Assembly (NCBI GenBank): GCA_021399345.1
Contig: JAAFKI010000145.1
Span: 1 to 25,937, forward strand
From: Candidatus Heimdallarchaeota archaeon
GTDB lineage: Archaea > Asgardarchaeota > Heimdallarchaeia > Heimdallarchaeales > Heimdallarchaeaceae
Length of the DNA stretch: 25,937 nucleotides
Reading direction: 5' to 3'
Shown here: piece after piece, positions 1-19,904 of the stretch
Layout: each line of letters begins with the position of its first letter
Numbering within the stretch: position 1 is the first letter of the stretch
Position numbers and translations under genes: made by a program
Notes under the pieces: model-generated
The model's input: the letters and a program-made list of their open reading frames with translations, nothing else
What the model was told of the DNA's origin: nothing
Databases searched by the model: none

Positions 1-114
1 CGTCATCACCTTTTTCCCCTGAATTCCCTATAAAAGCTCCCGTAATATTTGATTCTTAAGTGTCTTTCAAAGTGATTCATAGTGCTCTTAATATGACTAC
101 ATGACAAAAACTAT

Positions 115-309
115 TCATAATTTATAGACAATAAAAATATCCTTTTCAAGATCAACTCCATGATATGAAATAGGCATAACGCTATTTGCTCTTTTTGTAA
201 CCCCTTCAGACACCCTTACTAGCCATCCTTTGTGGACTACAGTATCCCTAGCTAACCAAGCTCTATGTGCCAATTCCTGAAAGAGAAGAACATCTTTTTT
301 CATCTTCAA
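115..309 (-). pseudogene. Truncated GNAT-family acetyltransferase (N-terminal fragment only)
   Basis: ELAHRAW...GWLVRVSEGVTKRANSVMP matches the N-terminus of a ~250-aa GNAT family (E.LA..AWP...GWLLR...G.TxRANSV). The ORF stops at 64 aa (TGA 115-117). Reading through hits TAG within 6 codons, and no acetyl-CoA motif is seen in 1-114. Confidence 0.6.
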
Positions 310-388
310 TATCTACTCATCTGATATTTTCTATTTATTGTTTTCCACTAAAGAAATTTACTTAAAGGATATAACCACTTATTATAAT

Positions 389-1792
389 ATGCGAAGCCTT
401 CAACTATCATTAGTCACATCTTCTGGTATATTATTGGCTTCAAAACCTGAGATTCTTACAGAAATGCAACACATCTTAGCTTCAAGTCTTATTAGTGCAA
501 TCATAACATTCGCAAAAGAAGTTCATAGACAAGAACTTCAATCAATTTCATATCACGATAAAAATATCTCATTTGTTCAAATCTATGAATTCATAATAAT
601 TATTGAAACTAAGGTAGAAGAAACACTTTTTTCTGATAGGCAACTTGCTCAGATTATTGAACAAATACGTATTAGTGCTGAACCATTGCTCTCAAAAAGA
701 GATCCTGATCTCCTTTCTGAAGGAGAAGCAGCTTTAATTTTAGAACATACACTCCATGATATATCCAATCTACCACTTTTCTTTGCGAAGAATCCTTTGA
801 TAAGTTCTGAACCACTTTTATTTAGTTTGGTCAAATTTGATGAAACTGACATAGAAATTATCGAAACTGTAGGCAAGAAGGAAGATGCGAATGAGATACT
901 TGATATGCTAACAAAATATAACCTGAATGCAGAATTCGAAGGAGAATTATCAGGGATTCTTTTATTAACTCCTGAAAAGAAAAACTCAGCTCTAGTAATT
1001 GTTGACGCGCAAGGACCACAAACAGTTCTAGGGATTCTAATATTTCCACGAGAATTAGACTACATAGCTTTCAGAATTTTTCCTCTAATCCAAGATAAAT
1101 TGAAGATAATTTCAGAACAAGATAATCAACTAGAAATGCTTGAAATCTTAGATCTTATTCAAAATATTGAAGATCCAGGAAATCATTTTTCTACAGTCGA
1201 TATAGAAGATCTTTCACTATCTTTTCTGAAAAATGCAATAGGGAATAAACTTGATACAATTCTTTATCCTGTTATCACTGAAGAAAATGTAATAATAGTT
1301 GGTGATAAATTAACTTCTAGAATGGTGATTGACACCCTTTCAATTTTTAATCAACATATAACTTTAGATATAATACAATGGGTGGACGAAAAAATAGATG
1401 TAAATGAAGTTAATCTGGACAAGGGTATATTTGGTATGCCATTGAATCAATTTAAGAAATTAAGCTCTACAGGAAAAATACCCGATAAGACAACAATAGT
1501 TAATCTAATTGATGGTGAAATTAAAGGAAATAAAGAAGGTACTCACTTTATTACTCTATTGGACAAACTAAAAGATCAAGATTTGGACAAGGCTTCTGTT
1601 GTTATTTTCAATGAATTGCGAAAATTAGTTTCTATGGCTTATATCATTACATCGTTTTCTCTTTATGATAAAGAACAATCTGAAATGCTCTTTAGAAATC
1701 TATTTCAACACTCAGGATTCCCTGCAAGTTTTGTAAACAAAGCTACAGAATTAGCATTGAAAAGAAATCCATTATTGACCAAGATAGTTTAG
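389..1792 (+). CDS. Longin/roadblock-like + DENN-like domain protein (Asgard eukaryotic-signature type)
   Basis: Long ORF; ATG 389 is preferred over TTG 338. The N-terminus SGILLAS...SSLISAIITFAKEV...LQSISY is an Asgard longin/roadblock pattern. The middle LFSLVKFDE resembles the uDENN first strand. The C-terminal LDTILYPVITEENVIIVG...LSIF...GIFGM...TIVNL resembles the cDENN core, followed by a helical tail. Confidence 0.6.
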   Translation: MRSLQLSLVTSSGILLASKPEILTEMQHILASSLISAIITFAKEVHRQELQSISYHDKNISFVQIYEFIIIIETKVEETLFSDRQLAQIIEQIRISAEPLLSKRDPDLLSEGEAALILEHTLHDISNLPLFFAKNPLISSEPLLFSLVKFDETDIEIIETVGKKEDANEILDMLTKYNLNAEFEGELSGILLLTPEKKNSALVIVDAQGPQTVLGILIFPRELDYIAFRIFPLIQDKLKIISEQDNQLEMLEILDLIQNIEDPGNHFSTVDIEDLSLSFLKNAIGNKLDTILYPVITEENVIIVGDKLTSRMVIDTLSIFNQHITLDIIQWVDEKIDVNEVNLDKGIFGMPLNQFKKLSSTGKIPDKTTIVNLIDGEIKGNKEGTHFITLLDKLKDQDLDKASVVIFNELRKLVSMAYIITSFSLYDKEQSEMLFRNLFQHSGFPASFVNKATELALKRNPLLTKIV

Positions 1793-1880: not shown

Positions 1881-2684
1881 ATGAGTGTTAAGTCTGAAGT
1901 AATGGTTAAAGTAGACAATTTAGTAAAAAGTTTTGGAAATGTTGTAGCAGTAAACGGACTATCTTTTGAAGTAAAACCAGGAGAGATATTCGGCCTACTA
2001 GGTCCTAACGGAGCCGGAAAGACCACTACAGTAAAAATCCTTCTCGGATTAATAGAGGAAGACAGTGGTGAAATAGAAGTTTTTGGTCTTGATCCTAGTA
2101 AAGAGGAAGTTAAGGTAAAAGATCGTATTGGGTATGTTTCAGAAGATCCATTGATCTATAGATCGATGACTCCTAGGATGCTTTTTAATTTCATATCTTC
2201 TATAAGAAAACTAGACGAAAAAGAAACAACAGAGAAACTCAAGTATTATTTTGAAAGTTTCGAAGCTGTTGAATATTATGATAAGCTGATTGCAACTCTC
2301 TCAAGAGGAAATAAACAAAAAATGCAAGTTATAGCCTCTCTACTACATGAACCTGATTTATTGATCGCGGATGAACCACTCACTGGTTTAGATGCTAAAT
2401 CAGCTAAAGTCCTTAAAGAAATCCTTGAACTTCACACAGAACGTGGTGGTTCAGTTATTCTATCAACTCATATTCTAGAAGTTGCAGAGGAAGTTTGTGA
2501 TAGGATTGCTATCATGGATAAGGGTAAACTTGTAGCTATTGGAACTTTGGAAGAACTTTCAGTAATGGCTAATAAAGCAGGTGCTGATTTAGAGGATATC
2601 TTCCTCAAACTAACAAACCAAGATGAATCTATTACACACATCGTTAAGAATCTACGGAAAATGTTAGGAAACAATAAAAAATAA
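1881..2684 (+). CDS. ABC transporter ATP-binding protein (ABC-2/CcmA-like exporter)
   Basis: Walker A GPNGAGKTT, signature LSRGNKQK, Walker B LLIADEP, H-loop STH. Confidence 0.96.
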   Translation: MSVKSEVMVKVDNLVKSFGNVVAVNGLSFEVKPGEIFGLLGPNGAGKTTTVKILLGLIEEDSGEIEVFGLDPSKEEVKVKDRIGYVSEDPLIYRSMTPRMLFNFISSIRKLDEKETTEKLKYYFESFEAVEYYDKLIATLSRGNKQKMQVIASLLHEPDLLIADEPLTGLDAKSAKVLKEILELHTERGGSVILSTHILEVAEEVCDRIAIMDKGKLVAIGTLEELSVMANKAGADLEDIFLKLTNQDESITHIVKNLRKMLGNNKK

Positions 2685-2695
2685 GATGATTATAG

Positions 2696-4435
2696 ATGAA
2701 AAATTCCGAACTATACAAGGTTTCCAAAAGGGTCTATAAAGAAGCTATTCTTCATGCTCAATTACAAGCAGCAGGAAGTAACCAACAAAGATTCCTCGAA
2801 AGAATACAAAAAGATCGTGTGGCAAGATCTCAAAATATCATCTTCAAGTTTATGGCAGCTGTATACATTGCTTCATTAGTTTTCCTACCCGTAATTTCAA
2901 TCTTCCAGATTTACTTAAATTTCGGATCAAATCCTGAATGGATAACTTTTGCTGGAAGTCTATCCTTTTCAATATTTTTCATTTTTCAGCTTGTTATTCT
3001 GATTGTATTCGCCTTAATGTTATCCTGGGGAATAATGTCTGGAGGTCCTTATGAATGGGTTCATACATTACCTTTCAATAGAAACCATATTCAAAAAATA
3101 GGTCTCTTTACATTTGCTCGTAGTATTAATATACAGTTAATAGTTATGAGTCTCGTCTTACCCATTGGCGTTACCACAGCTGTAAGTTTAGCTGCTGGTT
3201 TATATCTTGGAATAGGAAAGATATTTTTGATTAGTATAGTTAGTATTATTATCTCAGTTCTGAATACTATCTTCAATTTAGCTGTTTTAGTAATTTTAGG
3301 TAGAAAATTAGCTATAGTTATGGAAGAATACGATTTCAACTCAAAACGAGCTAATTTCGTTCGTATATCTACCATGGTAATTTATCTGATAACTTCCATG
3401 TTAGTTGTAATTACAATCCAATATGGTATAGAAAAGCTTCCTATCCTCTTTCAAATTAGTCCATTAACTGCTGGATCTACCTCGATAATGAATATTGTTC
3501 TATCATTCATTGCCATTCCATTTTCTTTAGGCTATCTGATGACCATCTTCTTAGTGGACATCTCTATGATTCCTAGTTTAGTGATTGTTGGATCAGTTAC
3601 TGGATTTTTACTGTATATACTGCTGGTTTATTTAGTAACAAAGAAAGCCTTGAAAACTCTACGAAATATCTCTTCACCTGACATCAAAAGATTTGATCCG
3701 AAGAGAAAGAAAACTGTAGTTGATGATATTAAAATTAAATCTACTACTCCAACGAGAGCATATATGAAAAGAGATATTTCTATTATAACCAGAGAAACAC
3801 AGCAGATTATGATTCTAATAATGCCAATAATGATTCCAGTATATGCAGCAATACTGGGCTTTACGGGAGCATTTACAGTAGTTCTTGGCAATACAGGATT
3901 GACTGATTTGTACATAGTACTTATGTTTTTTATTGTGATGAATTCATTCATTCTGAGTGTAAGTTTGACTAACATAGAAACTGGTGGAGAAACGATTACT
4001 GCTTCACTTCCAATTAATCCTAGAGAACAAGTAAAAGCAAAATTACCCTATTTCTTCAGCATAATAATAGTTGCTATACTTGTAGCCCAGATCTTTCTTG
4101 TTAGTTCACCAATTTTCTATCCCTCATTGTATCTAACTTTAGCTTTCCTTCCTGTATTTCCTCTGATTGGTATATCTTCACTTCTGTTTAAAATACTACT
4201 TTTTGGAAAGCTCAAAAACAAATTTGCAGTTGAAGAAATAAGAGTAAAATATAAAATTTACAAGTATATACTAGGGTTTGTATTTGTTGCATGTTTAATG
4301 GCTCTTTTCCTCTATACAGCTTATGTTGGTTATTGGGCGATATTTACAGCTGAAGCAATTGTTTCTGTAATTGTTTTCTTCTCTTTCAACTATATGTTTC
4401 CCAAGGCAAAATGGAAGGTTAAGTATATCTTCTAA
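2696..4435 (+). CDS. ABC exporter permease (multi-pass membrane protein)
   Basis: 579 aa with more than 12 hydrophobic segments, two 'LP' repeats (HTLPF, ASLPI) and KRDISIITRE, typical of archaeal ABC-2 permeases. Starts 11 nt after the ATPase. Confidence 0.85.
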   Translation: MKNSELYKVSKRVYKEAILHAQLQAAGSNQQRFLERIQKDRVARSQNIIFKFMAAVYIASLVFLPVISIFQIYLNFGSNPEWITFAGSLSFSIFFIFQLVILIVFALMLSWGIMSGGPYEWVHTLPFNRNHIQKIGLFTFARSINIQLIVMSLVLPIGVTTAVSLAAGLYLGIGKIFLISIVSIIISVLNTIFNLAVLVILGRKLAIVMEEYDFNSKRANFVRISTMVIYLITSMLVVITIQYGIEKLPILFQISPLTAGSTSIMNIVLSFIAIPFSLGYLMTIFLVDISMIPSLVIVGSVTGFLLYILLVYLVTKKALKTLRNISSPDIKRFDPKRKKTVVDDIKIKSTTPTRAYMKRDISIITRETQQIMILIMPIMIPVYAAILGFTGAFTVVLGNTGLTDLYIVLMFFIVMNSFILSVSLTNIETGGETITASLPINPREQVKAKLPYFFSIIIVAILVAQIFLVSSPIFYPSLYLTLAFLPVFPLIGISSLLFKILLFGKLKNKFAVEEIRVKYKIYKYILGFVFVACLMALFLYTAYVGYWAIFTAEAIVSVIVFFSFNYMFPKAKWKVKYIF

Positions 4436-5547: not shown

Positions 5548-6150
5548 CTAAAAAATCATGTACTTGGGTTTGAACATTCCTACCATTACTAGCCACATTT
5601 TCTTGAATATATTACTGGGGAAAATTGAATCAAATATTTCTTGAAATGTTCCATTTGGGGCCCCTATTGTTATTCTAAATGCACAAGCTTTATCATAAGT
5701 GCATTCCACACAATTCTTTCTAAACCTCTCACCCTCATCCAATAACCCTTCTTCTGCTATTATGTCTTGGAAATTTGCAAAAGGGTCTATATTTCCTGAG
5801 AAATTATCAAGTAAATGCCCATAATGTTTTGTAAACAAATCAGCAAATAATCTTAATCTGTTTTTATAAGCATCTAGATTTTCTTCTGGATCTGTGTACA
5901 TAATTACAGTTATTTTTTCTGTTGGAAAAGTCAAAGTTTTTGCTTGGTCCATTTTAAATTCATGAAACTGGTTTGGATTTGCTTGATCGAAGAGCAACAT
6001 GGCGTTTAATAGAGCAGAATTAAGCATAGTTTCATCAGTAAATGTATTATCTTTTGCTAAATCAATGCAATGCATGCCAATATGACACATTAAAGAACGA
6101 CCAAAGAGAGGTAAACCACTTGAATGTGTAATGATTATATTCTGTATCAT
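5548..6150 (-). CDS. Longin-like domain protein with cysteine clusters
   Basis: ATG 6150 is preferred over GTG 6171. MIQNIIITHSSGLPLFGRS...SALLNAM...F...FTKHY...FSGNIDPFANF is the Asgard longin/sigma-adaptin-like pattern. It also carries CHIGMHC and CVECTYDKAC. Confidence 0.6.
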   Translation of the reverse strand: MIQNIIITHSSGLPLFGRSLMCHIGMHCIDLAKDNTFTDETMLNSALLNAMLLFDQANPNQFHEFKMDQAKTLTFPTEKITVIMYTDPEENLDAYKNRLRLFADLFTKHYGHLLDNFSGNIDPFANFQDIIAEEGLLDEGERFRKNCVECTYDKACAFRITIGAPNGTFQEIFDSIFPSNIFKKMWLVMVGMFKPKYMIF

Positions 6151-6204
6151 TAAGCAACCTTGATTTAACACTATATTTCTTTTTTGCTGTTTGTAAGGAG
6201 TTTG

Positions 6205-7587
6205 TTATCTCATTTCTTTCATTTCTACTACTCTCTTCTCCAATCTAGCAATATCAGCTGCAAAAGCCATTAAGTGAGATTCTAATGATACTCTAGCACT
6301 AGTTAGAACATCTTGTTTAGTCTTAGATTGTACATTTTTCAGGAAGGTTTCCATTATTACTACATCCCCTCCACCATGACCACTTAATCTACCAGTTTTT
6401 CTAACTATAGTCTTCTTATTTGTCAAGTGATTATAAAGGACAAGATTATCTCCTGAAGCAAGAAATTCCCCAATTATTGTTCCTCTTGTTCCATCAACTC
6501 TTATAGTTCTCCCTTCTTCATTTGAAAAACCATGTAATGTAAAAATAGCAGTTGTCTGGTCTTCAAATTCAATATTGATAACTTGGTGATCAACAACATT
6601 ATGTTCATCCATACTATAGACACATCGACCATAGTTGGTCTCATTTAGAGCTTTTATTTTACCTTCTCTTGACATATCTGAAGATATAGTGCTTACTGGC
6701 CATTCCGAATAGTCTTTAACTTTTCTAAAAAGAGGTAGGTTAGTTAATTTAGGAAACTTTAGTACAGATTTTACAATGAATTTCTCTAAACCTTTAGAGC
6801 TTTTTGCTCCAATCTGCAATAAAGGTATTATATCAAGATAGATCCGGGATGCATTGTATAAACAAGATTTTTCAATAGGACACCCTTGAATACAGTAATC
6901 TGGTGCTCCATCAGGCATATTATCTCTTCCAAAATATTTCTGAGAGCCAAAAGAGCTTAACCTTTGAACTCTTTGCCCTACCAACCAGAATAAGATATCC
7001 ATATCATGACAAGATTTTGCTAGAATCATGGGACTTGATTTTTCTCTATTATGCCAATGTCCTCTAACATAAGAATGAGCATAATGAAAGGGAGAAACAT
7101 TTTCACGTAAGGATATATTCACAACATCTCCTATCTTACCAGATTCGATTATTGATTTTATGGCAGAGAAAAATGGTCCAAAACGTAAGCCATGACAAAT
7201 TTGCAAAATCTTACCAGTACTTTCTGAAACATCAGCAAGAGACTTACATTCCTTAAGAGTAGTTGCCATAGGTTTCTCAAGAAGAACATCATAACCTAGA
7301 TTCATTGCTTTAATTGCAGGCTCATAATGCATTTGATCTTGTGTCATTATTAGTGCAACATCAGCAAATTTTTCTTTTTCAAGTAAGGGTTCCCAGCTTT
7401 CAAAACTGTTTTCTTCAGAAATCTCATGCTTTCTAACAAATTTATCTCTTCGAGCTTTTTGAGGTTCAGCAACTGCAATAATATTGATAGATTCTGGATT
7501 ATTAAGTGCATATTCTCCAAAAGTATCTGCACCTCTCTCCCCTGCTCCAATTAAGATGGCTGTTATTTGCTTGATCATAATGTTCAT
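6205..7587 (-). CDS. Gfo/Idh/MocA family oxidoreductase
   Basis: IGAGERG, VAEP, LLEKPMA, HSYVRGHW, LAKSCHDMD, GHGGGD, SHLMAFAAD. The start may be ATG 7578. Confidence 0.93.
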   Translation of the reverse strand: MNIMIKQITAILIGAGERGADTFGEYALNNPESINIIAVAEPQKARRDKFVRKHEISEENSFESWEPLLEKEKFADVALIMTQDQMHYEPAIKAMNLGYDVLLEKPMATTLKECKSLADVSESTGKILQICHGLRFGPFFSAIKSIIESGKIGDVVNISLRENVSPFHYAHSYVRGHWHNREKSSPMILAKSCHDMDILFWLVGQRVQRLSSFGSQKYFGRDNMPDGAPDYCIQGCPIEKSCLYNASRIYLDIIPLLQIGAKSSKGLEKFIVKSVLKFPKLTNLPLFRKVKDYSEWPVSTISSDMSREGKIKALNETNYGRCVYSMDEHNVVDHQVINIEFEDQTTAIFTLHGFSNEEGRTIRVDGTRGTIIGEFLASGDNLVLYNHLTNKKTIVRKTGRLSGHGGGDVVIMETFLKNVQSKTKQDVLTSARVSLESHLMAFAADIARLEKRVVEMKEMR

Positions 7588-7733
7588 CTATTCTTTTTTT
7601 ATGTTTTTTTGATTTTTTCCCTCTCTCTACTCTTTAACCTTGTTCAACCATATTACATTTTTCCAAAGAAGACTGAGTCATCTACGAAACACTAAAATGA
7701 AATAGAAGAATAGATTATTATTCTTTTTGGATT

Positions 7734-8870
7734 CTAAATATTTACTATTTCTTCAGAGAACACAACATTTCTTTTCGCAAGATAATCTATAACACTGCGA
7801 TAAACTTCAGTATTTTTTCCTAAATATTCTGGAGGAATGATTCCTTTTTGGTTGAATTTTCCTTCTAACAAGACTTTAGCTACAGCTGTGCAAGTATATC
7901 CTGTTGTTCGCGCCATTGATATGATTCTCTTCTCTCTATCGTACCTATCAAGCATATCATAGGTATAACGTAGTTTCTTGTCATCTTTCATTCCTTCAAT
8001 AACTATCTTCATAACAGTAAAATCTTCATCTCCTTCTTCTAACACCCATTGATCAAATAGAAGTTTAGATGTTAACTCAATTGGTTTGATTTTTTTTCCT
8101 TTTACATCAATTTCCTCTGTATTGAAGAATCCTGTTTCTCTTAGCATTCTCACCTTTTCTATATGACCAGGATATCTTAGTGTTTTTTCTTTCATGAAAG
8201 GAATATCCATTGTCTTGATGAGAGATCTAAGACCATCGGTATTGAAAGCTTCTAGAGTTCCTATTTCTGGAAAATATAATAATTCAGGTTCAGATAATGC
8301 TGGTTTAACAACTATCTCACTATTCTCAATATATCTGGCTAATCTGAGGTATTCCTCGATTACATCAGTGGGTGAAAAAGGTGCTTTATATTCAAAAGGC
8401 CAGTTCCTTTCTACAGGTAATCCCCCAACATAACATAGGAAAATTTCTGTTTTATCTAGGATTGAATCAATATAACCAAGTATGATGTTACTTGAACCAG
8501 GAGCTACTCCACAGTCAACAACAGCTGTAACTCCTTTCTCCTTTGCTAATTCATCTAAGCTTAACGCATCTTCCTCGAAAAATGAGATATCTACTATATT
8601 CTTTCCTGCTTCTATCACTGCTTTGAGGGACCCATAACCTATGAAACCAGGAAGAGCTCCAATTACTAAATCAAAATCCTTCACAATATCTTTGATGATA
8701 TTGGGATTGGATAAATCTGCACATATTCCATGAAGATCATAATCATGTGTCAGTTTATCTAAAACTTCTTGGTTAATATCAACTATTGAAACCTCAATAG
8801 AGGGATCTTCTGCTAGATCTCTGGCAATAACATTTCCTACAAATCCTGCACCTAAAACTATGACTTTCAA
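7734..8870 (-). CDS. Saccharopine dehydrogenase family protein (lysine 6-dehydrogenase-like)
   Basis: VLGAGFVG, GALPGFIG, VDISF, DCGVAPG, YVGGLP, EAFNTDGLRSL, EKTLRYPGH, SMARTTGY; TTG start. Confidence 0.92.
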   Translation of the reverse strand: MKVIVLGAGFVGNVIARDLAEDPSIEVSIVDINQEVLDKLTHDYDLHGICADLSNPNIIKDIVKDFDLVIGALPGFIGYGSLKAVIEAGKNIVDISFFEEDALSLDELAKEKGVTAVVDCGVAPGSSNIILGYIDSILDKTEIFLCYVGGLPVERNWPFEYKAPFSPTDVIEEYLRLARYIENSEIVVKPALSEPELLYFPEIGTLEAFNTDGLRSLIKTMDIPFMKEKTLRYPGHIEKVRMLRETGFFNTEEIDVKGKKIKPIELTSKLLFDQWVLEEGDEDFTVMKIVIEGMKDDKKLRYTYDMLDRYDREKRIISMARTTGYTCTAVAKVLLEGKFNQKGIIPPEYLGKNTEVYRSVIDYLAKRNVVFSEEIVNI

Positions 8871-8939
8871 CTTTTAATCACAAGAGCATAAGAACTACCT
8901 TATAATTAAAACTTTTCAAAAACAAGTAAACAAGTGCTG

Positions 8940-9047
8940 TCATCAAGTGCTTCAAAAGATGTATTAGTATAACTTGGATTCCCCCGTAACTTCGGCTGAC
9001 AGAAATATTATAAGTGTTCAAACATATAGTATTGAAACACTTGATGA
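8940..9047. promoter_or_regulatory. Inverted 16-bp repeats plus a third partial copy in a divergent intergenic region
   Basis: TCATCAAGTGCTTCAA (8940-8955) and TTGAAACACTTGATGA (9032-9047) are reverse complements at 15/16 positions. AAGTGTTCAA occurs at 9012-9021. Confidence 0.5.
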
Positions 9048-9056
9048 GCTGAAAAT

Positions 9057-10982
9057 GTGAAAAAAAGAACTATTATTTACTTTCTAATTTTAGTATTTGT
9101 TGTTAATACTAGTTTAGTTTCAGGAAAAGCTGATGTAGAAAATGAACCCTTCTTCACACTCATTTTGAAAACAAGTGGTTGGGGAGTAAAACCTGATTAT
9201 GGTTTGTTCATTGCAAATGATTTGCGAGAAATAGGAATTAATGTTGAAGTGAAAGTTCAGGAATGGTGGTACATCTATCCAATCTATCCACCTTATATCG
9301 GTGATTGGGATTTGTTCATTTTCAATTATTACTTCAGTCCGTTTGAACGTGCTTTAATGGCTCTTTATAGCGAAGAAGGTCTCGTTAATTTCTCTGGCCT
9401 AGGAAATGATTTACCTTATGGTATGGAAAGCGAAGACTTACTAGTTCGTATAAATGAAGAAGCTGATTTTGAAGCAAGACGAAATATTACCTATGAATGG
9501 CAGCAATTACTTATGGAAAAAATTTACCCTGTAATACCACTTTTTTCTCAAAGAATTTATACTGGAGTATGGGCTAATACTTTAGGTTATGATGAAGAAT
9601 GGGGGATGATAAACTCGCTCCCTTATATGAATTATGAAGGCTATCATGAAGGTCAAACTAACCTGGATGAACTTAATGTAGCTGATGCGAATTGGAAAGA
9701 TTTAAACCCGATTTTTTCAGATGATTTTTCAAGCTCCTATATCTGTGAATTATTAACCGAACCAATTATCCAGTTTTCTCCTGATTATTATCCGATGAAG
9801 ACAGGTTTAGTGGAAGATTGGGATATTATAAATAACACTCATTACAAATTCTATGTAAGAGATAATATTTTCTGGACCCCTTCATTCAATATAACTGGAA
9901 GAACAGCATCATCTCCAGAACTTGATGTAGCTTCAACTCCTCTCATGGTTGGACTTAATGGCGATTTAAGCAATGGTGTTAACCAGCAATTAAGTGCTAA
10001 AGATTTTGTTTTTACCATTTTAGCTCATAGTAGTATGATTTCAGAGGGAAAGATGAATTATGATTGGGTAAAAAATATCTATGTTGATTCTTCAAATGAA
10101 CTTGTTTTTCATATTGAGGTTGATGCGAACTCTACTACTGAAGCAATTGAACCATACGCTCATGTGCTCTCTGAGCTAGCAATTAGTTGTTTGCCTGAGT
10201 TCTTTTTGAATTCAACAGATCCATCAACATATTTTACAGAAAGTGGAATACCTTATTCTGGTCTTTTTCCGGAAATAGTTGAATCACCCCAATGGCAAAC
10301 ATTTAGTTACTCAGCATTTGGTACTGGTAAATTCATGTTAGATTATTTTGTAAAAAATTTAGTAACTGTCTTGCAAAGAAATCCTCATTGGTTTGGTGTA
10401 GGTGCGAAAGATGGCCAAACAGGACTGGTTCCTTTTGTGGATACTGTTAATATAAGAGTAATCCCTGATATTTCTGCTGAACTAGCTGAATTTCTAGCTG
10501 GTGAACTGGATTTTACAGGGTTATCAATGTTCCCCTCAACAAGAAAAGAAATGCAATCCGATCCACGTTTTATTGTAAATACAAAAATATCAAATATCAT
10601 TGAACTCTGCTCTATCAATTTGCGTAGACCTTATTTGGGAGGTGAAGATAATTTTATTTGGGCTAATCAAACATCTGATGAAAGTTATACTAAAGCTTTA
10701 GCTGTTAGGAAGGCAATTAGCTATGCAATAGATAGAAATGCAATGAATATATTGGAACATATACCTCTTCATCACCCATTCCCAGATACATATTACTCAA
10801 TGCAGTATGAGAATATAACAAGATATGATTATAATTTAGAAAAAGCATGGGAATGGATGAATAAAGCTGGTTACACATGGGAAACACACACTACCTTAGA
10901 TTTAGATTTTGAGCTTATTGCAGTAACTGTACTTTGCTTAATCCCAGTTTTCTCAAATCGGATGAAGAGAAGAAGAAAATGA
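9057..10982 (+). CDS. Family-5 (peptide/nickel, cluster C) ABC solute-binding protein, C-terminally membrane anchored
   Basis: Signal peptide; DLNP, SAKDFVFT, GTGKFML, LQRNPHW, GELD, VRKAISYAIDR, YDYNLEKA; hydrophobic C-terminal segment with KRRRK tail; GTG start. Confidence 0.88.
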   Translation: MKKRTIIYFLILVFVVNTSLVSGKADVENEPFFTLILKTSGWGVKPDYGLFIANDLREIGINVEVKVQEWWYIYPIYPPYIGDWDLFIFNYYFSPFERALMALYSEEGLVNFSGLGNDLPYGMESEDLLVRINEEADFEARRNITYEWQQLLMEKIYPVIPLFSQRIYTGVWANTLGYDEEWGMINSLPYMNYEGYHEGQTNLDELNVADANWKDLNPIFSDDFSSSYICELLTEPIIQFSPDYYPMKTGLVEDWDIINNTHYKFYVRDNIFWTPSFNITGRTASSPELDVASTPLMVGLNGDLSNGVNQQLSAKDFVFTILAHSSMISEGKMNYDWVKNIYVDSSNELVFHIEVDANSTTEAIEPYAHVLSELAISCLPEFFLNSTDPSTYFTESGIPYSGLFPEIVESPQWQTFSYSAFGTGKFMLDYFVKNLVTVLQRNPHWFGVGAKDGQTGLVPFVDTVNIRVIPDISAELAEFLAGELDFTGLSMFPSTRKEMQSDPRFIVNTKISNIIELCSINLRRPYLGGEDNFIWANQTSDESYTKALAVRKAISYAIDRNAMNILEHIPLHHPFPDTYYSMQYENITRYDYNLEKAWEWMNKAGYTWETHTTLDLDFELIAVTVLCLIPVFSNRMKRRRK

Positions 10983-13765: not shown

Positions 13766-14893
13766 ATGGTTGATATTATAGATTATCTGCTTTCTTTTGA
13801 TGCCACTATATTCTTTATAGCCCTTGGAATTTACAGCGGTTTTTTAGTAATAATGTTTCTAGGAACAAAATTTCTTCCTGGAATCAAAACACAAGGCGAA
13901 CAGCTAAAGGATGGTTCAAGGAAAGACTACAAATTGACAGGCTTAATGTTATTCATGATCTCAACTTTAACTGCTGTTTTAGTTTTTGTCTTAAATGAAA
14001 CTGTTTCTGCAAGATGGAATTTAACATATATAGCTCGAGCATTTTTTCCACTACTAATCATTGCAACTATTTTTTCATTTATATGGAGTCTTCTACTCTT
14101 CTTCTTGGGAAGACGAAAGCAAGGAGAGAGCAAAAGTAAAGGAGTAAAAGGGGTTTTGCATGATTTTTGGTTTGGACCAGAATTGAATCCAACATGGTGG
14201 GGAGTAGACCTCAAGATGTTTACTTATCAACCATCTCTAATTGGTCTTTCATTTATTAACTGGAGTTTTCTCTTTCTACAACTACAAGAATCGGGATATA
14301 TTTTACCACAAATGTGGATGTATCAGGGATTTTGGTGGTTCTATCTGTTTACCCATTATATTCTCGAAGAGTTCATGCTTACAACATGGGATATTATGGC
14401 AGAGAATTTTGGATTTATGCTAGTGTGGGGAGATTTAGTTTATGTCCCATTCTTCTATTCTATTGCAGGATGGTTTATTATAATTCAAACTGAAGCTTTC
14501 ACTATTTATCCAATTATTATCTTATGTCTAGCTTATTTTGTCTCAATCTGGATTTTTAGGGGATCCAATATACAGAAATTTAGATTCAAAAGAAATCCTA
14601 ATATCAGAATTTGGTTTAAGCCAGCTAAATCTTTAGAGGGAAAAATACTTATCTCTGGATTTTGGGGGATAGGTAGAAAACTAAACTATTCAGGAGAAAT
14701 ACTTACTTATCTTGTTATAACTTTAACAACAGGAATTTACTCCCCAATCCCCTTTATTCTCCCACTTTCATTATTAATTCTTCTTACTCATAGAGCATGG
14801 CGTGATGATAAGCGATGTAGGAAAAAATATGGAAAACTTTGGGAAGAATATTGCTTAATTGCAAAATATAAGATGATACCGAAAATATACTAA
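13766..14893 (+). CDS. ERG4/ERG24 family sterol reductase (Delta14-sterol reductase / LBR-like)
   Basis: DFWFGPELNP...DLKMF, TTWDIMAENFGFMLVWGDLVYVPFFYS, IFRGSNIQK, LISGFWGIGRKLNYSGE, HRAWRDDKRCRKKYGKLWEEYC...IPKIY. Confidence 0.92.
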   Translation: MVDIIDYLLSFDATIFFIALGIYSGFLVIMFLGTKFLPGIKTQGEQLKDGSRKDYKLTGLMLFMISTLTAVLVFVLNETVSARWNLTYIARAFFPLLIIATIFSFIWSLLLFFLGRRKQGESKSKGVKGVLHDFWFGPELNPTWWGVDLKMFTYQPSLIGLSFINWSFLFLQLQESGYILPQMWMYQGFWWFYLFTHYILEEFMLTTWDIMAENFGFMLVWGDLVYVPFFYSIAGWFIIIQTEAFTIYPIIILCLAYFVSIWIFRGSNIQKFRFKRNPNIRIWFKPAKSLEGKILISGFWGIGRKLNYSGEILTYLVITLTTGIYSPIPFILPLSLLILLTHRAWRDDKRCRKKYGKLWEEYCLIAKYKMIPKIY

Positions 14894-15236: not shown

Positions 15237-16754
15237 TCAATCGTTTGTACGGTTTTTTCTTCTTTTAAGAAATGCTAAAATAAGAATAGAAATCCAGAGA
15301 GTATTTAGAAAAGTAACGTCATTTGTGGTAGTGTTTTCTGATTTAAACGCATAAATATCAATGGAATGTGCAGATCCATCAATTTCATATCCATTTTTAC
15401 CAGAAAAATCTGTCCAAAAGTTTCCTTCCTCAAGATTTGAATCAAACCATATATTCTGTTCTCCGTCGTCAAAAGCTTGGCTAAACCCATCTAGATTATT
15501 ATATACAAACTCATTGTGGTGTATTCTATTGAAATATGAATATTGATCTAGATAGACTCCATATTCAGTGTTTTCAAAGAAGTAGTTATAAGCTATAACT
15601 GAATCAGATGAATTTGTAGAATAGATGCCGTTAAACTTACTCTTTGAAATATAATTTTGTCCGATATAAATCTCATCCGATTTTCTAAGATATATCCCAT
15701 GAATGCCACTTGAAATTATATCATTACCCGAGATTAAAGCCTTTGAAACATAATTAAAAAATATGCCATCACAAGAACTTTCAGAAAAATTATTCTTCGA
15801 AGCCGTAACATAATCACTATTTTCTATATGTAAGTTGTAAACGATACTTCTAGAGCAAAAATTCTCCAAAACAGTAGCGTAATGAGAATAGTTCTCAATT
15901 TTGATTCCAACTTCTGTTCTATCAATAGTGTTGTTATAAATAAAACAGTATTGACTTTCTGAGCAAAGTATTCCCCCTTCAACTCTATCATAAATATAAT
16001 TTGTAGAAATCTCAGAATAATCACCTCTACTTATTGAAATCGCAATCTCATTAGGTGATGGTCCCAGATATCCTTGCATTGTTATTCTATTGTTACTTAT
16101 AATACTATTTGGACAACTACTGATACTTATACCTTGATCACATGCGTATAAAATGTTTGATTTCAATATTGTTCTAGCTAAATCATATCCTCCTACACAG
16201 TAAATACATGAAGTAAAATTGTTATTTTGAATTAAACACCCATCTGAATTGCGTAAAAACATAGCAATGCTAAACTTCTCAAAAGTGTTATTTTCGATTA
16301 TTACTTCTTCAGAGTATTTAATTTGTAAACCTGTATTTTCATAATACACCATATTCTTGAATGTATTAGATTCAACAACTGCTGTTCCTAAAGTAATATT
16401 TTCTAGATATATTCCATCATTATTTGCAACAAGTGTATTATTTGTAACAACAAAATATTTAGCTGTATTCTTAATGAATATCGAATATCCATTAGGTGAT
16501 ACATTGCTAAAAGCCATATTTTGTATTAAGTAAGGATTCTCTGAAGTACCGTTCCCTGGAAACCCATAGTCGATAAATCCAGAATCTGAAGTTATATATA
16601 TATTTATCAAAAATGAGAGTTTTTTTCCAGAATCTATTTGAACAGAACTCGAACCTGTACTAGAAAGAATCATTGTATATGATAATGAAAATATAAGAAT
16701 CATCAGAACGAATAATCGACTCAGTTTGAATTTTGTCAATCTACTCGTTCTCAT
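15237..16754 (-). CDS. Secreted right-handed parallel beta-helix (NosD/CASH-like) surface protein, paralogue 1
   Basis: Signal peptide, DYGFPGNGTSENPYLIQN, many I..N..GI repeats, GNFWTDF...YEIDG...DIY, C-terminal transmembrane segment plus KRRK. Confidence 0.88.
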   Translation of the reverse strand: MRTSRLTKFKLSRLFVLMILIFSLSYTMILSSTGSSSVQIDSGKKLSFLINIYITSDSGFIDYGFPGNGTSENPYLIQNMAFSNVSPNGYSIFIKNTAKYFVVTNNTLVANNDGIYLENITLGTAVVESNTFKNMVYYENTGLQIKYSEEVIIENNTFEKFSIAMFLRNSDGCLIQNNNFTSCIYCVGGYDLARTILKSNILYACDQGISISSCPNSIISNNRITMQGYLGPSPNEIAISISRGDYSEISTNYIYDRVEGGILCSESQYCFIYNNTIDRTEVGIKIENYSHYATVLENFCSRSIVYNLHIENSDYVTASKNNFSESSCDGIFFNYVSKALISGNDIISSGIHGIYLRKSDEIYIGQNYISKSKFNGIYSTNSSDSVIAYNYFFENTEYGVYLDQYSYFNRIHHNEFVYNNLDGFSQAFDDGEQNIWFDSNLEEGNFWTDFSGKNGYEIDGSAHSIDIYAFKSENTTTNDVTFLNTLWISILILAFLKRRKNRTND

Positions 16755-16793
16755 TAGTATTTAATTTACTTTTTTACTTATAATCTTTTACTC

Positions 16794-18323
16794 TTACAAA
16801 ACTCTCTTCAACCTTCTCTTTGAACTCTTAGAGTATCTCATTTTTCTTTTAGAACCTAGAAAGTAAATTGCTATAATAGTAATTGCGGAAAAGATAATTT
16901 CTGTTGAAGTTGATACATTGTTTGTATTTGTTGGTTTAGAAAATAAAGGGTAAATATCTACAGATCCAGCAGTACCGTCAATATAGTAATCTCCTTCACC
17001 TTCATAATCCATCCAAATATTTCCTTCTTTTTGAGTAAGATCGAACCATGTATTATTTTCTCCATTGTCACATGCTTGACTATAACCATCTAGGTTATTG
17101 TTATAGAATTCATTATGGTGAATAACATTGTTAGATGATTGTATATCAAAAAAAAGACCAAACTCTGAATTTAGATGAATATAATTATTAATAATAGTAG
17201 AATCATCTACATTATCACAATAAATTCCAGTAAGTTCATTTCTAGCTATATAGTTCTGACCTATAAAAACATCAGGACATGTAGAGAAATATAATCCATG
17301 ATATTCTGCACTTACTACATCATTATTTAGAAAAACAATTTTGGAGACATCATGAAAAATGACATTATGATAGGTACTTAGTGAGAAATTGTTCCTAGAA
17401 CATATAATATTTTCACAAGACTCTACAAATAAACTATAATATCGACTTTTCGCACATGTATTTTCTGTGAGAGTAATCTGATTGGAATTTGATTTAATTT
17501 CTATTCCTACACCTGCATCTTCAATGATGTTATTGTGAATTATATTGTTAGAACTCTCTGAAAGAAAAATTCCTACATCATAAGGAAATTCGAAATAGTT
17601 TGAAGAAATTTCTGAATATGTAGTTTCAGAGAAATAAACACCCGTATGATCATCAATATAATTGTTTTTAATTGAGATATATGAACTACCAGAAGTAAAT
17701 CTAACACTTCCTAGTAAATTGTGTTCGATATTGATATTATGAGATCCAACACCAAATAGACCACTGTGAATATCATTGTTATAAATATCTATATCTTCAC
17801 TCCACCAAAGCTCAATAGGTCTATAGCAATATATGAAATCGTTTTTCTCTATTCTTATTCCATTTGAAGACACAATACTTATTCCAATATTGGAATGAGG
17901 CCATGAAATATCTGAAAAGTCGAAAGTATTGTCTAAAATAACACCAGTTCCACTTGCAATATTATTTATATATATTGAATAGTTGTTATTTGCTGTTATT
18001 ATATTGTTTGAGATTACAAAAAATCTAGTTGTATTTTCTATGTGAATTGAAGACAGTGTAGTAGAATTCTCACTTAAAGTCATATCTTGTAGAAGATATG
18101 GGTCAGAATGTGTTCCATTCCCTGGAAAACCATAATCAATGAAATCTGAATCTTCATTAATATATATATAACTTATAGACGAAAGATTCAAATCTTGCTT
18201 TAATATCTGAATATTGTTTGTTGAATTAAAGATAAATTTAGAATTTAAAATAAAAAATGACACAATAAAGAATAGAACTATAAGCTCTCTTTTCTTAAAG
18301 GTCTTTACATTGATCATTTTCAT
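16794..18323 (-). CDS. Secreted right-handed parallel beta-helix (NosD/CASH-like) surface protein, paralogue 2
   Basis: Same architecture: DYGFPGNGTHSDPYL, GNIWMDY...YYIDG...VDIYP, transmembrane segment plus basic tail. The start may be ATG 18317. Confidence 0.88.
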   Translation of the reverse strand: MKMINVKTFKKRELIVLFFIVSFFILNSKFIFNSTNNIQILKQDLNLSSISYIYINEDSDFIDYGFPGNGTHSDPYLLQDMTLSENSTTLSSIHIENTTRFFVISNNIITANNNYSIYINNIASGTGVILDNTFDFSDISWPHSNIGISIVSSNGIRIEKNDFIYCYRPIELWWSEDIDIYNNDIHSGLFGVGSHNINIEHNLLGSVRFTSGSSYISIKNNYIDDHTGVYFSETTYSEISSNYFEFPYDVGIFLSESSNNIIHNNIIEDAGVGIEIKSNSNQITLTENTCAKSRYYSLFVESCENIICSRNNFSLSTYHNVIFHDVSKIVFLNNDVVSAEYHGLYFSTCPDVFIGQNYIARNELTGIYCDNVDDSTIINNYIHLNSEFGLFFDIQSSNNVIHHNEFYNNNLDGYSQACDNGENNTWFDLTQKEGNIWMDYEGEGDYYIDGTAGSVDIYPLFSKPTNTNNVSTSTEIIFSAITIIAIYFLGSKRKMRYSKSSKRRLKRVL

Positions 18324-18344
18324 ATAATTAATATACAGCTCTGC

Positions 18345-18366
18345 TAATAAATTCTATTCACATTTT
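18345..18366 (-). promoter_or_regulatory. Duplicated promoter block (BRE/TATA-like) upstream of paralogue 2
   Basis: AAAATGTGAATAGAATTTATTA on the - strand; 21/22 identical to 19905-19926. Confidence 0.6.
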
Positions 18367-19876
18367 ATAGCATTCGTTTATGATATTTTTTTCTTCTAGA
18401 AATCGCAGAATATAAAGTTAAGATAGATATTGAGAACCAGATGATTTCCATTGAAACTGATAGATTGTTAGTCTTTGTAGGATCAGACCCTAAGGGGTAC
18501 ATATCAACAGAACGAGCATCACCGTCAATATAATAATCTCCTTTTCCTGAATAATCCATCCACAGGTTACCTTCCTGTAGCACAGGATCGTACCAAGAAT
18601 TATTTTTTCCGTGATCACAAGCTTGGCTAGTTCCACCAATGTTATTATTATAGAATTCATTATGATGAACAACATTGTTCTCTGACCGTAAATCAAATAG
18701 AATACCGTACCCAGTATTTTCATGAATATAATTATAGATAATAGCTGATTCATCTACATTATCACAGAATATCCCAGCACCTTCATTCCTTGCAATATAA
18801 TTTTGGCTCATAAAAACTTCAGAACATGTAGCAAAGTATATCCCATAATATCCAGCACCTATTACATCATTATTGAGGAAAACAATTTTGGATACAAAAT
18901 GAAAAAGTACACTCTGATATCCTCCCTGTGAAAAGTTATTGTAAGTAAAAGTTATATGATCACACGACTCTACTAATAAGTTATATTGAGAACTTGATGA
19001 ACAGGTATTTTCGTTAAAAACATTGTTATCAGAATTTGCTTTAAGTTCAATTCCAATAAATGCGCTTTCAATAGTGTTATTGTATATGAAATTATTAGAA
19101 CTCTCTGAGAAATATATACCAGTTTCAGTTTGGACTGCTTTTATGTAGTTCGAGGATATCTCGGAATATGTTGTTTCTAAGAAAGTAACACCGTTGTGAG
19201 CATCCATAAAATTGTTACAAATTGAAATATATGAGCATAAATAAGTAGTAAAAACCCCCCGAGTTGAGCTTAATATCAAATTATTTTTAAAAACAATAAA
19301 ATTGGCCCTAACGCACGCTAATCCAGTAAAACAAAGCTCAATTTTATTATTATTAATTTCAATATCTTCACAATACGAAAGACTAAAAGCATAACCACAG
19401 TCATAGAAAAAGTTATTTTCGATTCGTATGTTCTTACTCCCTAAGATCCTAATTCCTGTGTTAAATCCATGTGAGAAATCAATTGTATTATTAGAAATAA
19501 TTACTGTTCCACTAACAACATTTCTTAATTGAATTGCATTACTATTATTAGCTGTTATTGTATTGTTTGAGATAATGAAACATTTGGTTGTATCTTGAAT
19601 GTGAATTGACGACCCAGCTGGTGATTCATCAATTAAAATCAAATCTTGAATGAGATAGGGATCATTAATTGTTCCATTTCCTTGGAATCCATAATCAACA
19701 AAATCTGAATCCTCATTGATATTTATGTATGGAAAAGATAAGAGATTCATTTCCTGATTAGAAGCTTGTATATTATTTGTAGAATTGAGGAAATTATTAG
19801 AACTAAGTAATAAAAGTGAAAGAATCAAAACCAGAACCATAAGTTCTTTTTTCTTAAAACGTCTTGCTCTGTTCAT
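18365..19876 (-). CDS. Secreted right-handed parallel beta-helix (NosD/CASH-like) surface protein, paralogue 3
   Basis: Same architecture. ATG 19876 (MNRARRFKKKEL) aligns with paralogue 2 MINVKTFKKREL, so it is preferred over TTG 19903. Confidence 0.88.
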   Translation of the reverse strand: MNRARRFKKKELMVLVLILSLLLLSSNNFLNSTNNIQASNQEMNLLSFPYININEDSDFVDYGFQGNGTINDPYLIQDLILIDESPAGSSIHIQDTTKCFIISNNTITANNSNAIQLRNVVSGTVIISNNTIDFSHGFNTGIRILGSKNIRIENNFFYDCGYAFSLSYCEDIEINNNKIELCFTGLACVRANFIVFKNNLILSSTRGVFTTYLCSYISICNNFMDAHNGVTFLETTYSEISSNYIKAVQTETGIYFSESSNNFIYNNTIESAFIGIELKANSDNNVFNENTCSSSSQYNLLVESCDHITFTYNNFSQGGYQSVLFHFVSKIVFLNNDVIGAGYYGIYFATCSEVFMSQNYIARNEGAGIFCDNVDESAIIYNYIHENTGYGILFDLRSENNVVHHNEFYNNNIGGTSQACDHGKNNSWYDPVLQEGNLWMDYSGKGDYYIDGDARSVDMYPLGSDPTKTNNLSVSMEIIWFSISILTLYSAISRRKKYHKRML

Positions 19877-19904
19877 TCTCTCATTAATAATATGATTGTT
19901 CAAT

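Follow-up and report, generated by a model that had tools for sequence, protein, structure and literature searches.

Eukaryotic cells rely on DENN and longin modules as central regulators of membrane traffic and nutrient signalling. A locus of a Candidatus Heimdallarchaeota archaeon raises the question of whether an archaeal gene encodes these modules as one complete protein, and whether such a protein would act on a small GTPase. The locus lies in a stretch of 25,937 nucleotides (contig JAAFKI010000145.1 of assembly GCA_021399345.1, positions 1 to 25,937 of the forward strand), which in its full length is called the window here. The gene in question, gene A, occupies 389..1792 (+), TAG stop included, and its product P0001 has 467 amino acids. 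As judged from its predicted structure, P0001 very probably has an additional longin domain at its N-terminus, ahead of a complete DENN module composed of a longin-like uDENN, a cDENN and a dDENN part. That this double-longin DENN protein serves as a regulator or scaffold of a small GTPase is on balance probable, if by no great measure. The presence of DENN and longin modules in Heimdallarchaeia bears on the origin of the eukaryotic machinery, and the gene A family provides a compact, well-folded and paired archaeal example.

Conservation of gene A

Gene A falls within the single long open reading frame of its region (338..1792, +), which is open from a TTG codon, and the window as a whole is AT-rich (GC ~32%). 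The start of the gene was placed at 389 because the ATG at this position coincides in the alignment with Met-1, which is conserved in 40 full-length homologues. When 5.8 billion proteins were searched with a word index, 56 homologue clusters were recovered, nearly all with proteins of 454-473 amino acids, and all named clusters among the 56 come from assemblies designated Heimdallarchaeota, Heimdallarchaeaceae or 'Asgard group'. In an exhaustive HMMER search of 1.84 billion representatives only 38 proteins reached E<=0.001. The distribution was surveyed in 301 genomes sampled from the phylum, where a full-length match was defined by E<1e-40. Such matches were present in 24/28 genomes of the window's own family. 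A second family in the same order had them in 5/11 genomes and one more family of the class in 2 genomes, and no other group of the sample had any. The family as a whole falls within one order-level branch of Heimdallarchaeia. Weaker matches were limited to residues ~270-466 and were found in other Heimdall proteins of 250-790 amino acids.

The ratio of nonsynonymous to synonymous substitution rates (dN/dS), measured against the closest relative (L007), was 0.11 for gene A and 0.16 for its sister gene B, which is described below. Both sisters are under purifying selection. Gene A is a real gene and not a chance reading frame, since 56 clusters of homologues of conserved length, a confident structural model and the dN/dS of 0.11 all say so.

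Domain architecture and structural relatives

The full-length AlphaFold2 model of P0001, based on a 41-sequence alignment, had a mean predicted local distance difference test (pLDDT) score of 85.2 and a predicted template modelling (pTM) score of 0.86; when residues 130-467 were modelled by themselves these scores were 89.5 and 0.90, respectively. The first domain, D1 (residues 1-129; 389..775, +), is a classical longin by its structure matches and conservation, with the order beta-beta-alpha-beta-beta-beta-alpha-alpha (elements at residues 1-126). It is followed by D2 (residues 141-243; 809..1117, +), a second longin-like domain in the uDENN position, which was recognized from secondary structure and structure matches and has the order beta-beta-alpha(alpha)-beta-beta-beta-alpha over the same residues. 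A helical linker (residues 244-299; 1118..1285, +), delimited by model and alignment, leads to a cDENN-like alpha/beta core (residues 300-395, elements at 301-394; 1286..1573, +) that is supported by structure matches and hhalign. The protein ends in a dDENN-like helical tail (residues 396-467, helices at 399-466; 1574..1789, +), identified in the model and by structure matches.

The original prediction, which was made from the sequence without database searches, had divided the protein into four segments on the basis of short motifs. Every quoted string is present in the translation, namely SSGILLASKPE...LISAIITFAKE (residues 11-44), LFSLVKFDE (residues 143-151), ILYPVITEENVIIVG (residues 290-304), IFGM (residues 347-350) and IVNL (residues 370-373), and the segments coincide with the four predicted domains. 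D1 is the best conserved part between the two clades of the family that contain A and B, with 54% identity versus 31-36% in the other domains. Elsewhere conservation is concentrated in single residues and short motifs: R229 in D2 is invariant, the linker bears a conserved EDPGN(R/H)FS motif with D262 and G264 as invariant positions, and the core has the conserved motifs VVGDK, DTLSIFTQH and CGM.

In a Foldseek search of the PDB with the full-length model, DENND1A, DENND1B, DENND10, C9orf72, FLCN and SMCR8 lead with E-values from 4e-8 to 2e-5. When residues 130-467 were used, 17/17 matches at E<=0.001 were DENN-family chains, the weakest being bacterial TagF, and the whole guanine nucleotide exchange factor (GEF) domain of DENND1A/B was covered at E 7.5e-9 (363-391 alignment columns versus their 343-381 residues). 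Global template modelling scores are low (~0.35) because the lobes are placed differently in the model. Locally, residues 272-465 match residues 168-373 of DENND1A (Z 12.9, root-mean-square deviation (rmsd) 5.2 over 179) and residues 274-460 superimpose on the DENN domain in the folliculin crystal structure 3v42 (Z 11.7, rmsd 3.5 over 176). A Foldseek-independent comparison by VIA-align, run exhaustively over 48,161 PDB representatives, gave DENN proteins as all of its top six matches, with DENND1A at Z 12.5 (rmsd 5.7 over 183), SMCR8 likewise at Z 12.5 (rmsd 3.4 over 191), FLCN at Z 11.8 (rmsd 3.4 A over 176 residues) and DENND10 at Z 9.8. Unrelated secretion ATPases came next (Z <=9.5), and in these the alpha/beta core alone was covered. 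The original prediction had been made to depend on whether the C-terminal ~200 amino acids superimpose on a DENN core, and the last ~190 amino acids do so with FLCN and DENND1A at the Z-scores just given. The characteristic order of the DENN superfamily, a cDENN core and then a dDENN bundle with a longin-type uDENN directly before the core, is found in P0001, and the model, Foldseek and VIA-align thus agree on the architecture that had been proposed, an extra longin before uDENN, cDENN and dDENN. The nearest ESM Atlas clusters provide further leads; they include a Heimdall cluster with PF11704 Folliculin on 23% of its members, and eukaryotic clusters of FLCN, SMCR8 and C9orf72.

Both longin-type domains have structural relatives of their own. 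D1 matches Sec22b (Z 11.7, rmsd 3.1 over 124), the Lokiarchaeal longin 8yqg (Z 11.4) and, at Z 10-11.5, the first of the longin domains in each of Fuzzy, Mon1 and CCZ1. By VIA-align, D2 matches the same Lokiarchaeal longin (8yqg_B; Z 8.5, rmsd 3.8 over 125) and the longin of Lst4, the FNIP orthologue (4zy8; Z 7.9, rmsd 3.6 over 111). An internal duplication, in which D2 was recently copied from D1, was considered and rejected: hhalign finds no similarity between D1 and residues 130-467, and hence D2 did not arise from D1 by recent duplication.

Two consecutive longin-type domains are also what one would expect of a subunit of a tri-longin-type Rab GEF such as Mon1, Ccz1, Fuzzy or Inturned, which would make P0001 something other than a DENN protein. 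Chains of Mon1-Ccz1, BLOC-3 and Fuzzy-Inturned do appear in the full-length Foldseek search (E 5e-6 to 1e-3), and the match of their first longin domains to D1 has been given above; however, they rank after the DENN proteins, and without D1 they drop to E ~8e-3 or worse whereas the DENN matches stay. The third domain decides the matter, since it is a parallel alpha/beta core with a helical bundle whose best VIA-align matches are all DENN, and three consecutive longin domains are consequently not what is found. We regard a tri-longin assignment as highly improbable. The known tri-longin Rab GEFs (Mon1-Ccz1, HPS1-HPS4, Fuzzy-Inturned) resemble P0001 in their consecutive longins and differ from it in the third module, and they form heterodimers of paralogues, as is weakly proposed for A and B below.

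The double-longin DENN architecture is set in relief by two shorter, single-longin DENN proteins of 336 and 364 amino acids in the same genome, encoded at L003 (G000:C59, 1060-2070) and L005 (G000:C153, 1027-2121), the C153 protein being the one of 364 amino acids. The cDENN core of P0001 is tied to these two by hhalign with probabilities of 95% (E 3.7e-8) and 88%, and their core begins ~100 residues earlier, which fits one additional domain in the gene A family. The C59 gene is situated ~3 kb from an Arf-profile locus with a 315-amino-acid open frame.

Sister gene B and the paired locus

The genome holds a second full-length member of the family, sister gene B, on contig C180 (1283..2686, -). 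Its protein, P0089, is 37% identical to P0001, and a maximum-likelihood tree made by a quick method separates two clades, A with P0001 and B with P0089. In relatives A and B are same-strand neighbours, either directly or with an opposite-strand GNAT acetyltransferase gene between them, and at least 11 genomes of the genus have such a pair on a single contig. One copy is present in the genomes of two other genera of the family, among them two that consist of a single contig. Within Heimdallarchaeia the A/B duplication is limited to one genus and therefore parallels, and is not ancestral to, the FLCN/FNIP and SMCR8/C9orf72 pairs.

In this assembly the two genes are parted by a contig break alone, and the contig of the window (C78) adjoins C180 within a single locus. 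The GNAT gene that lies between the DENN paralogues in relatives is split here, with its N-terminal 67 codons in the window (127..327, -; codons 1-67 run from 327 to 127) and codons 80-260 on C180 (719..1261). Since halves of this gene are present on both contigs, the true order is TldD, B, GNAT (interrupted), A, ABC ATPase, membrane protein. The break in the GNAT gene is probably a disruption by an insertion sequence that also broke the assembly. Two further features of C180 were recorded. A TnpB-like open reading frame (IS200/IS605 OrfB-type; 1..633) runs off the contig end and is 86 bp from the GNAT part, and the GNAT portion itself seems to hold an in-frame stop.

The adjacency of the paralogues raises the possibility that their products associate. 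In co-folding, where each partner was supplied as its clade alignment in three runs and with three controls, A+B scored 0.47 in 3/3 runs versus 0.00 for the best of the three controls; the runs agreed in at least 85% of contacts and the partner pLDDT was 76. In a benchmark the mark passed by the pair was reached by 58/80 solved complexes and 2/110 mismatched pairs, and at scores of 0.60 or below by 7/80 solved complexes and by both of the passing mismatches. The co-fold thus lends weak support to an A+B heterodimer. The pass may also reflect the model's memory of the solved FLCN-FNIP2 and C9orf72-SMCR8 complexes and the method cannot separate a heterodimer from a homodimer of paralogues that are 37% identical.

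Exchange factor or GTPase-activating protein

The catalytic longins of FLCN, SMCR8, C9orf72 and NPRL2 are reported to carry a GP motif where the second strand begins, beside the arginine finger; a class of Heimdall longins bears the same motif, and DENND proteins and non-GAP longins are described there as being without it (PMC12290439). One may ask whether P0001 is a GTPase-activating protein (GAP) of the folliculin/SMCR8 type, in which a longin-longin heterodimer of A and B would offer an arginine finger to an Arf- or Rag-like GTPase.

FLCN, SMCR8 and C9orf72 are among the closest solved analogues of P0001, and precomputed matches to PF27109 SMCR8_C exist on homologues, where they are clear for P0020 (E<=1e-5), weak for P0030 and faint for the others, none being recorded for P0001 itself. 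The GTPase encoded near the family in some relatives (see below) is Arf-like, and C9orf72-SMCR8 is an Arf GAP according to the title of PDB entry 7mge. The residue pattern at position 58 of D1 also deserves attention: Arg is present in 80% of sequences and invariant in clade B, and clade A varies, which recalls the catalytic and non-catalytic partners SMCR8 and C9orf72.

The homologue alignment nevertheless speaks against a GAP of this kind. The GP motif is absent from both D1 and D2 across the gene A family; D1 reads SSG-[I/L/M]-LL, where G13 is invariant and has no Pro next to it, P20 coming after the strand, and the beta1-beta2 loop of D2 is DETD in P0001 and xxKG in the consensus. In this alignment no Arg of D1 is invariant throughout the family. 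Arg58 was weighed as a folliculin-type finger but not taken up, for it is Lys in P0001, is lost to Cys or His in distant members and has no GP motif alongside. It is furthermore located at the beta3-beta4 turn, and the finger of NPRL2 (R78) presumably lies one hairpin later. The only family-wide invariant Arg, R229, belongs to a long helix of D2. Taken together, we consider a folliculin-type GAP unlikely. We lean, without strong grounds, towards an exchange-factor or platform role instead, because the GP motif is absent and the first longin domain is devoid of an invariant Arg.

The gene cluster with an Arf-like GTPase

Among the lines of evidence that tie the family to a small GTPase, the gene cluster of relatives is the strongest. 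At L012 the same-strand order begins with a 154-amino-acid protein, an Arf-like GTPase, a protein with seven transmembrane segments (7-TM), a flavin-reductase-like protein and B, and continues past the GNAT gene on the opposite strand with A, an ABC ATPase and a 12-TM protein; L006, L010 and L011 have this order as far as their contigs extend. The GTPase of this cassette, P0091, matches Pfam Arf at E 2.6e-41. An orthologue of P0091 (62-90% identical) is found in 9/31 genomes of the family, and in 7/7 genomes where it can be placed it is 1-2 kb upstream of the DENN gene(s) on the same strand. The 154-amino-acid gene stands beside the GTPase in those seven genomes, and the 7-TM protein also belongs to the cassette. 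G086, from a different genus, has the order 154-amino-acid protein, Arf-like GTPase, 7-TM protein and DENN homologue, the latter being just 22-23% identical to A and B. This linkage suggests that the family works with a small GTPase, and in some relatives the clustered Arf-like GTPase is an obvious candidate client for direct GEF and GAP testing.

The cassette stretch corresponds to 7186-9923 (+) of L012 and was seen too in L006, L011 and L017. The 154-amino-acid protein is an orphan whose language-model neighbours include an archaeal cluster with NPR2 matches on 19% of its members, which may be taken as a lead; D1 has no similarity to it by hhalign.

Based on these observations one may propose that the product of gene A is a cytoplasmic regulator or scaffold of a small GTPase, most likely one of the Arf family, and that it probably acts as a dimer with sister protein B, a pairing that would resemble FLCN-FNIP and C9orf72-SMCR8. 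GTPase binding, a direction of regulation and dimerisation are what we infer for the protein.

Several observations weigh against this proposal, in addition to the two reservations on the co-fold. P0001 has no match at E<=1 in the local Pfam library, and neither P0001 nor the family profile has a significant match among PDB sequences. In the local library, which is without PF27109, no DENN or longin Pfam match above noise was obtained for P0001 and four homologues; the sole hint was Intu_longin_1, which two homologues matched at E 0.009 to 0.07. A search of PDB sequences with the D1 profile yielded no significant match either, a dynein roadblock light chain being best at E 0.84. A shared fold is in itself no proof of shared function, and DENN-like TagF is among the matches. 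The window has no small-GTPase gene, as had been stated from the sequence, and the ~40 Arf-profile (Arf/Ras-like) loci of the genome all lie on contigs other than C180 and that of gene A. In the genome of the window, an 88.6% complete assembly, the 154-amino-acid and 7-TM queries found no match, and the best Arf match to the cassette GTPase is just 41% identical; no orthologue of these proteins was found. The locus of the closest relative, L007, is likewise without the cassette, and none of the cassette neighbours is found in G026, a complete genome of another genus with a single-copy gene, or in G003. Finally, the A/B pair is retained without a P0091 orthologue in roughly two thirds of the genus's genomes. 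The pair is therefore not dependent on that particular GTPase.

The ABC transporter genes downstream

Gene A is followed on the same strand, within ~90 bp, by an ABC ATPase gene (1881..2684, +) and then by a gene for a multi-pass membrane protein (2696..4435, +), the orthologues of which in relatives have weak PF09847 12TM_1 matches. This arrangement could be taken to mean that P0001 is a longin/DENN-fold adaptor without a GTPase role, for instance a cytoplasmic regulator of the two proteins encoded downstream. This gene order is kept in 13 genomes of the genus and at 5/7 of the loci examined in relatives, the pair is under purifying selection where the GTPase cassette is missing, and DENN-like folds without a GTPase role exist, as exemplified by TagF. 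The linkage is broken, however, in L007 and three more genomes of the genus, and also in another genus of the family, whose two complete genomes have the DENN and ABC genes ~640 kb apart, whereas the linkage to the GTPase extends to a deeper relative at 22% identity. To our knowledge no precedent joins DENN proteins to ABC transporters. The ABC linkage looks like shallow synteny, and the transporter as a deep association was rejected on the distance in the two complete genomes. A purely adaptor function is in our estimation improbable, and regulation or scaffolding of a small GTPase is the reading we retain.

Relation to known DENN proteins

The DENN fold has been called abundant across all domains of life (PMC13392464). 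That DENN homologues occur in Asgard archaea was cited as known in the original prediction and had already been published by Liu et al. (bioRxiv 10.1101/2020.10.19.343400), who describe DENN proteins whose paralogue families have expanded in the Loki, Hel and Heimdall lineages, Heimdall proteins with the FLCN domain organisation, and a predicted operon in which a DENN gene is joined by the genes of a small GTPase and a Roadblock-superfamily protein. P0001 is a member of this published class, with which it shares the lineage, the longin and DENN blocks and the expanded paralogues. The gene A family differs in its two longin-type domains before the cDENN core and in the adjacent A/B pair. A cluster like that of Liu et al., with a DENN gene beside those of a small protein and a small GTPase, is present in L006, L011, L012 and seven surveyed genomes, including one of another genus; in the genome of the window it is not found, the locus there being TldD, B, GNAT, A. 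Unlike in the published cluster, the GTPase of the relatives scores as Arf-like and not Rab-like, and a 7-TM protein is added. The extra longin, the adjacent pair and the Arf-like GTPase with a 7-TM protein in relatives are the particular features of the family, and these may already be contained in the data of Liu et al. The copy in the window adds little to the published reports, but it shows the pair under selection after loss of the cassette.

Among eukaryotic proteins, the best overall match is to DENND1A/DENND1B, the tripartite Rab35 GEFs (6ekk, 3tw8), at Z 12.5-12.9. The identity is 12-15%, the lobe orientation differs in the model, P0001 has the extra N-terminal longin, and no Rab35-like partner is known for it. 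The heterodimeric GAPs FLCN-FNIP and C9orf72-SMCR8 share with A and B the succession of longin and DENN and the occurrence as a paralogue pair, and FLCN and SMCR8 are further alike in their C-terminal fold (Z 11.8 and Z 12.5) and in the faint to clear SMCR8_C matches on homologues; in contrast, P0001 has an extra longin and neither a GP motif nor a clear arginine finger. The Heimdall longins of FLCN/SMCR8 type (PMC12290439) are longin proteins of the same archaeal class and structural kin of the eukaryotic GAP longins, from which both longin-type domains of the gene A family deviate by being without GP. The C153 protein of the same genome may be a candidate member of that GP-motif class.

The lysosomal nutrient-sensing complexes C9orf72-SMCR8 and FLCN-FNIP are recruited by multi-pass transporters. 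One may speculate, and we offer this as a long shot, that A/B, the 154-amino-acid protein (possibly an NPRL2-like longin), the Arf-like GTPase and the 7-TM protein would together form a membrane-bound archaeal GTPase switch that is homologous in logic, and perhaps by descent, to C9orf72-SMCR8 and FLCN-FNIP, and that the lineage of the window rewired the pair to another of its ~40 GTPases after the cassette was lost.

Other genes in the window

A second gene for a longin/roadblock-like protein is found at 5548-6171 (-). Its product of 200-207 amino acids has such a domain at the N-terminus (IIITHSSGLPLFGRSL), several Cys and no Pfam match, and by hhalign D1 has no similarity to this 207-amino-acid protein. 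A gene matching it in size and in position, between those of an epimerase and a GFO/IDH/MocA oxidoreductase, occurs in L006, L008, L010, L011 and L012. At 13766-14893 (+) the window encodes a full-length protein of the ERG4/ERG24 sterol-reductase family (Pfam E 3.5e-70), here in an archaeal genome. Three tandem paralogues of ~505-512 amino acids with NosD/right-handed beta-helix domains occupy 15237-19903 (-).

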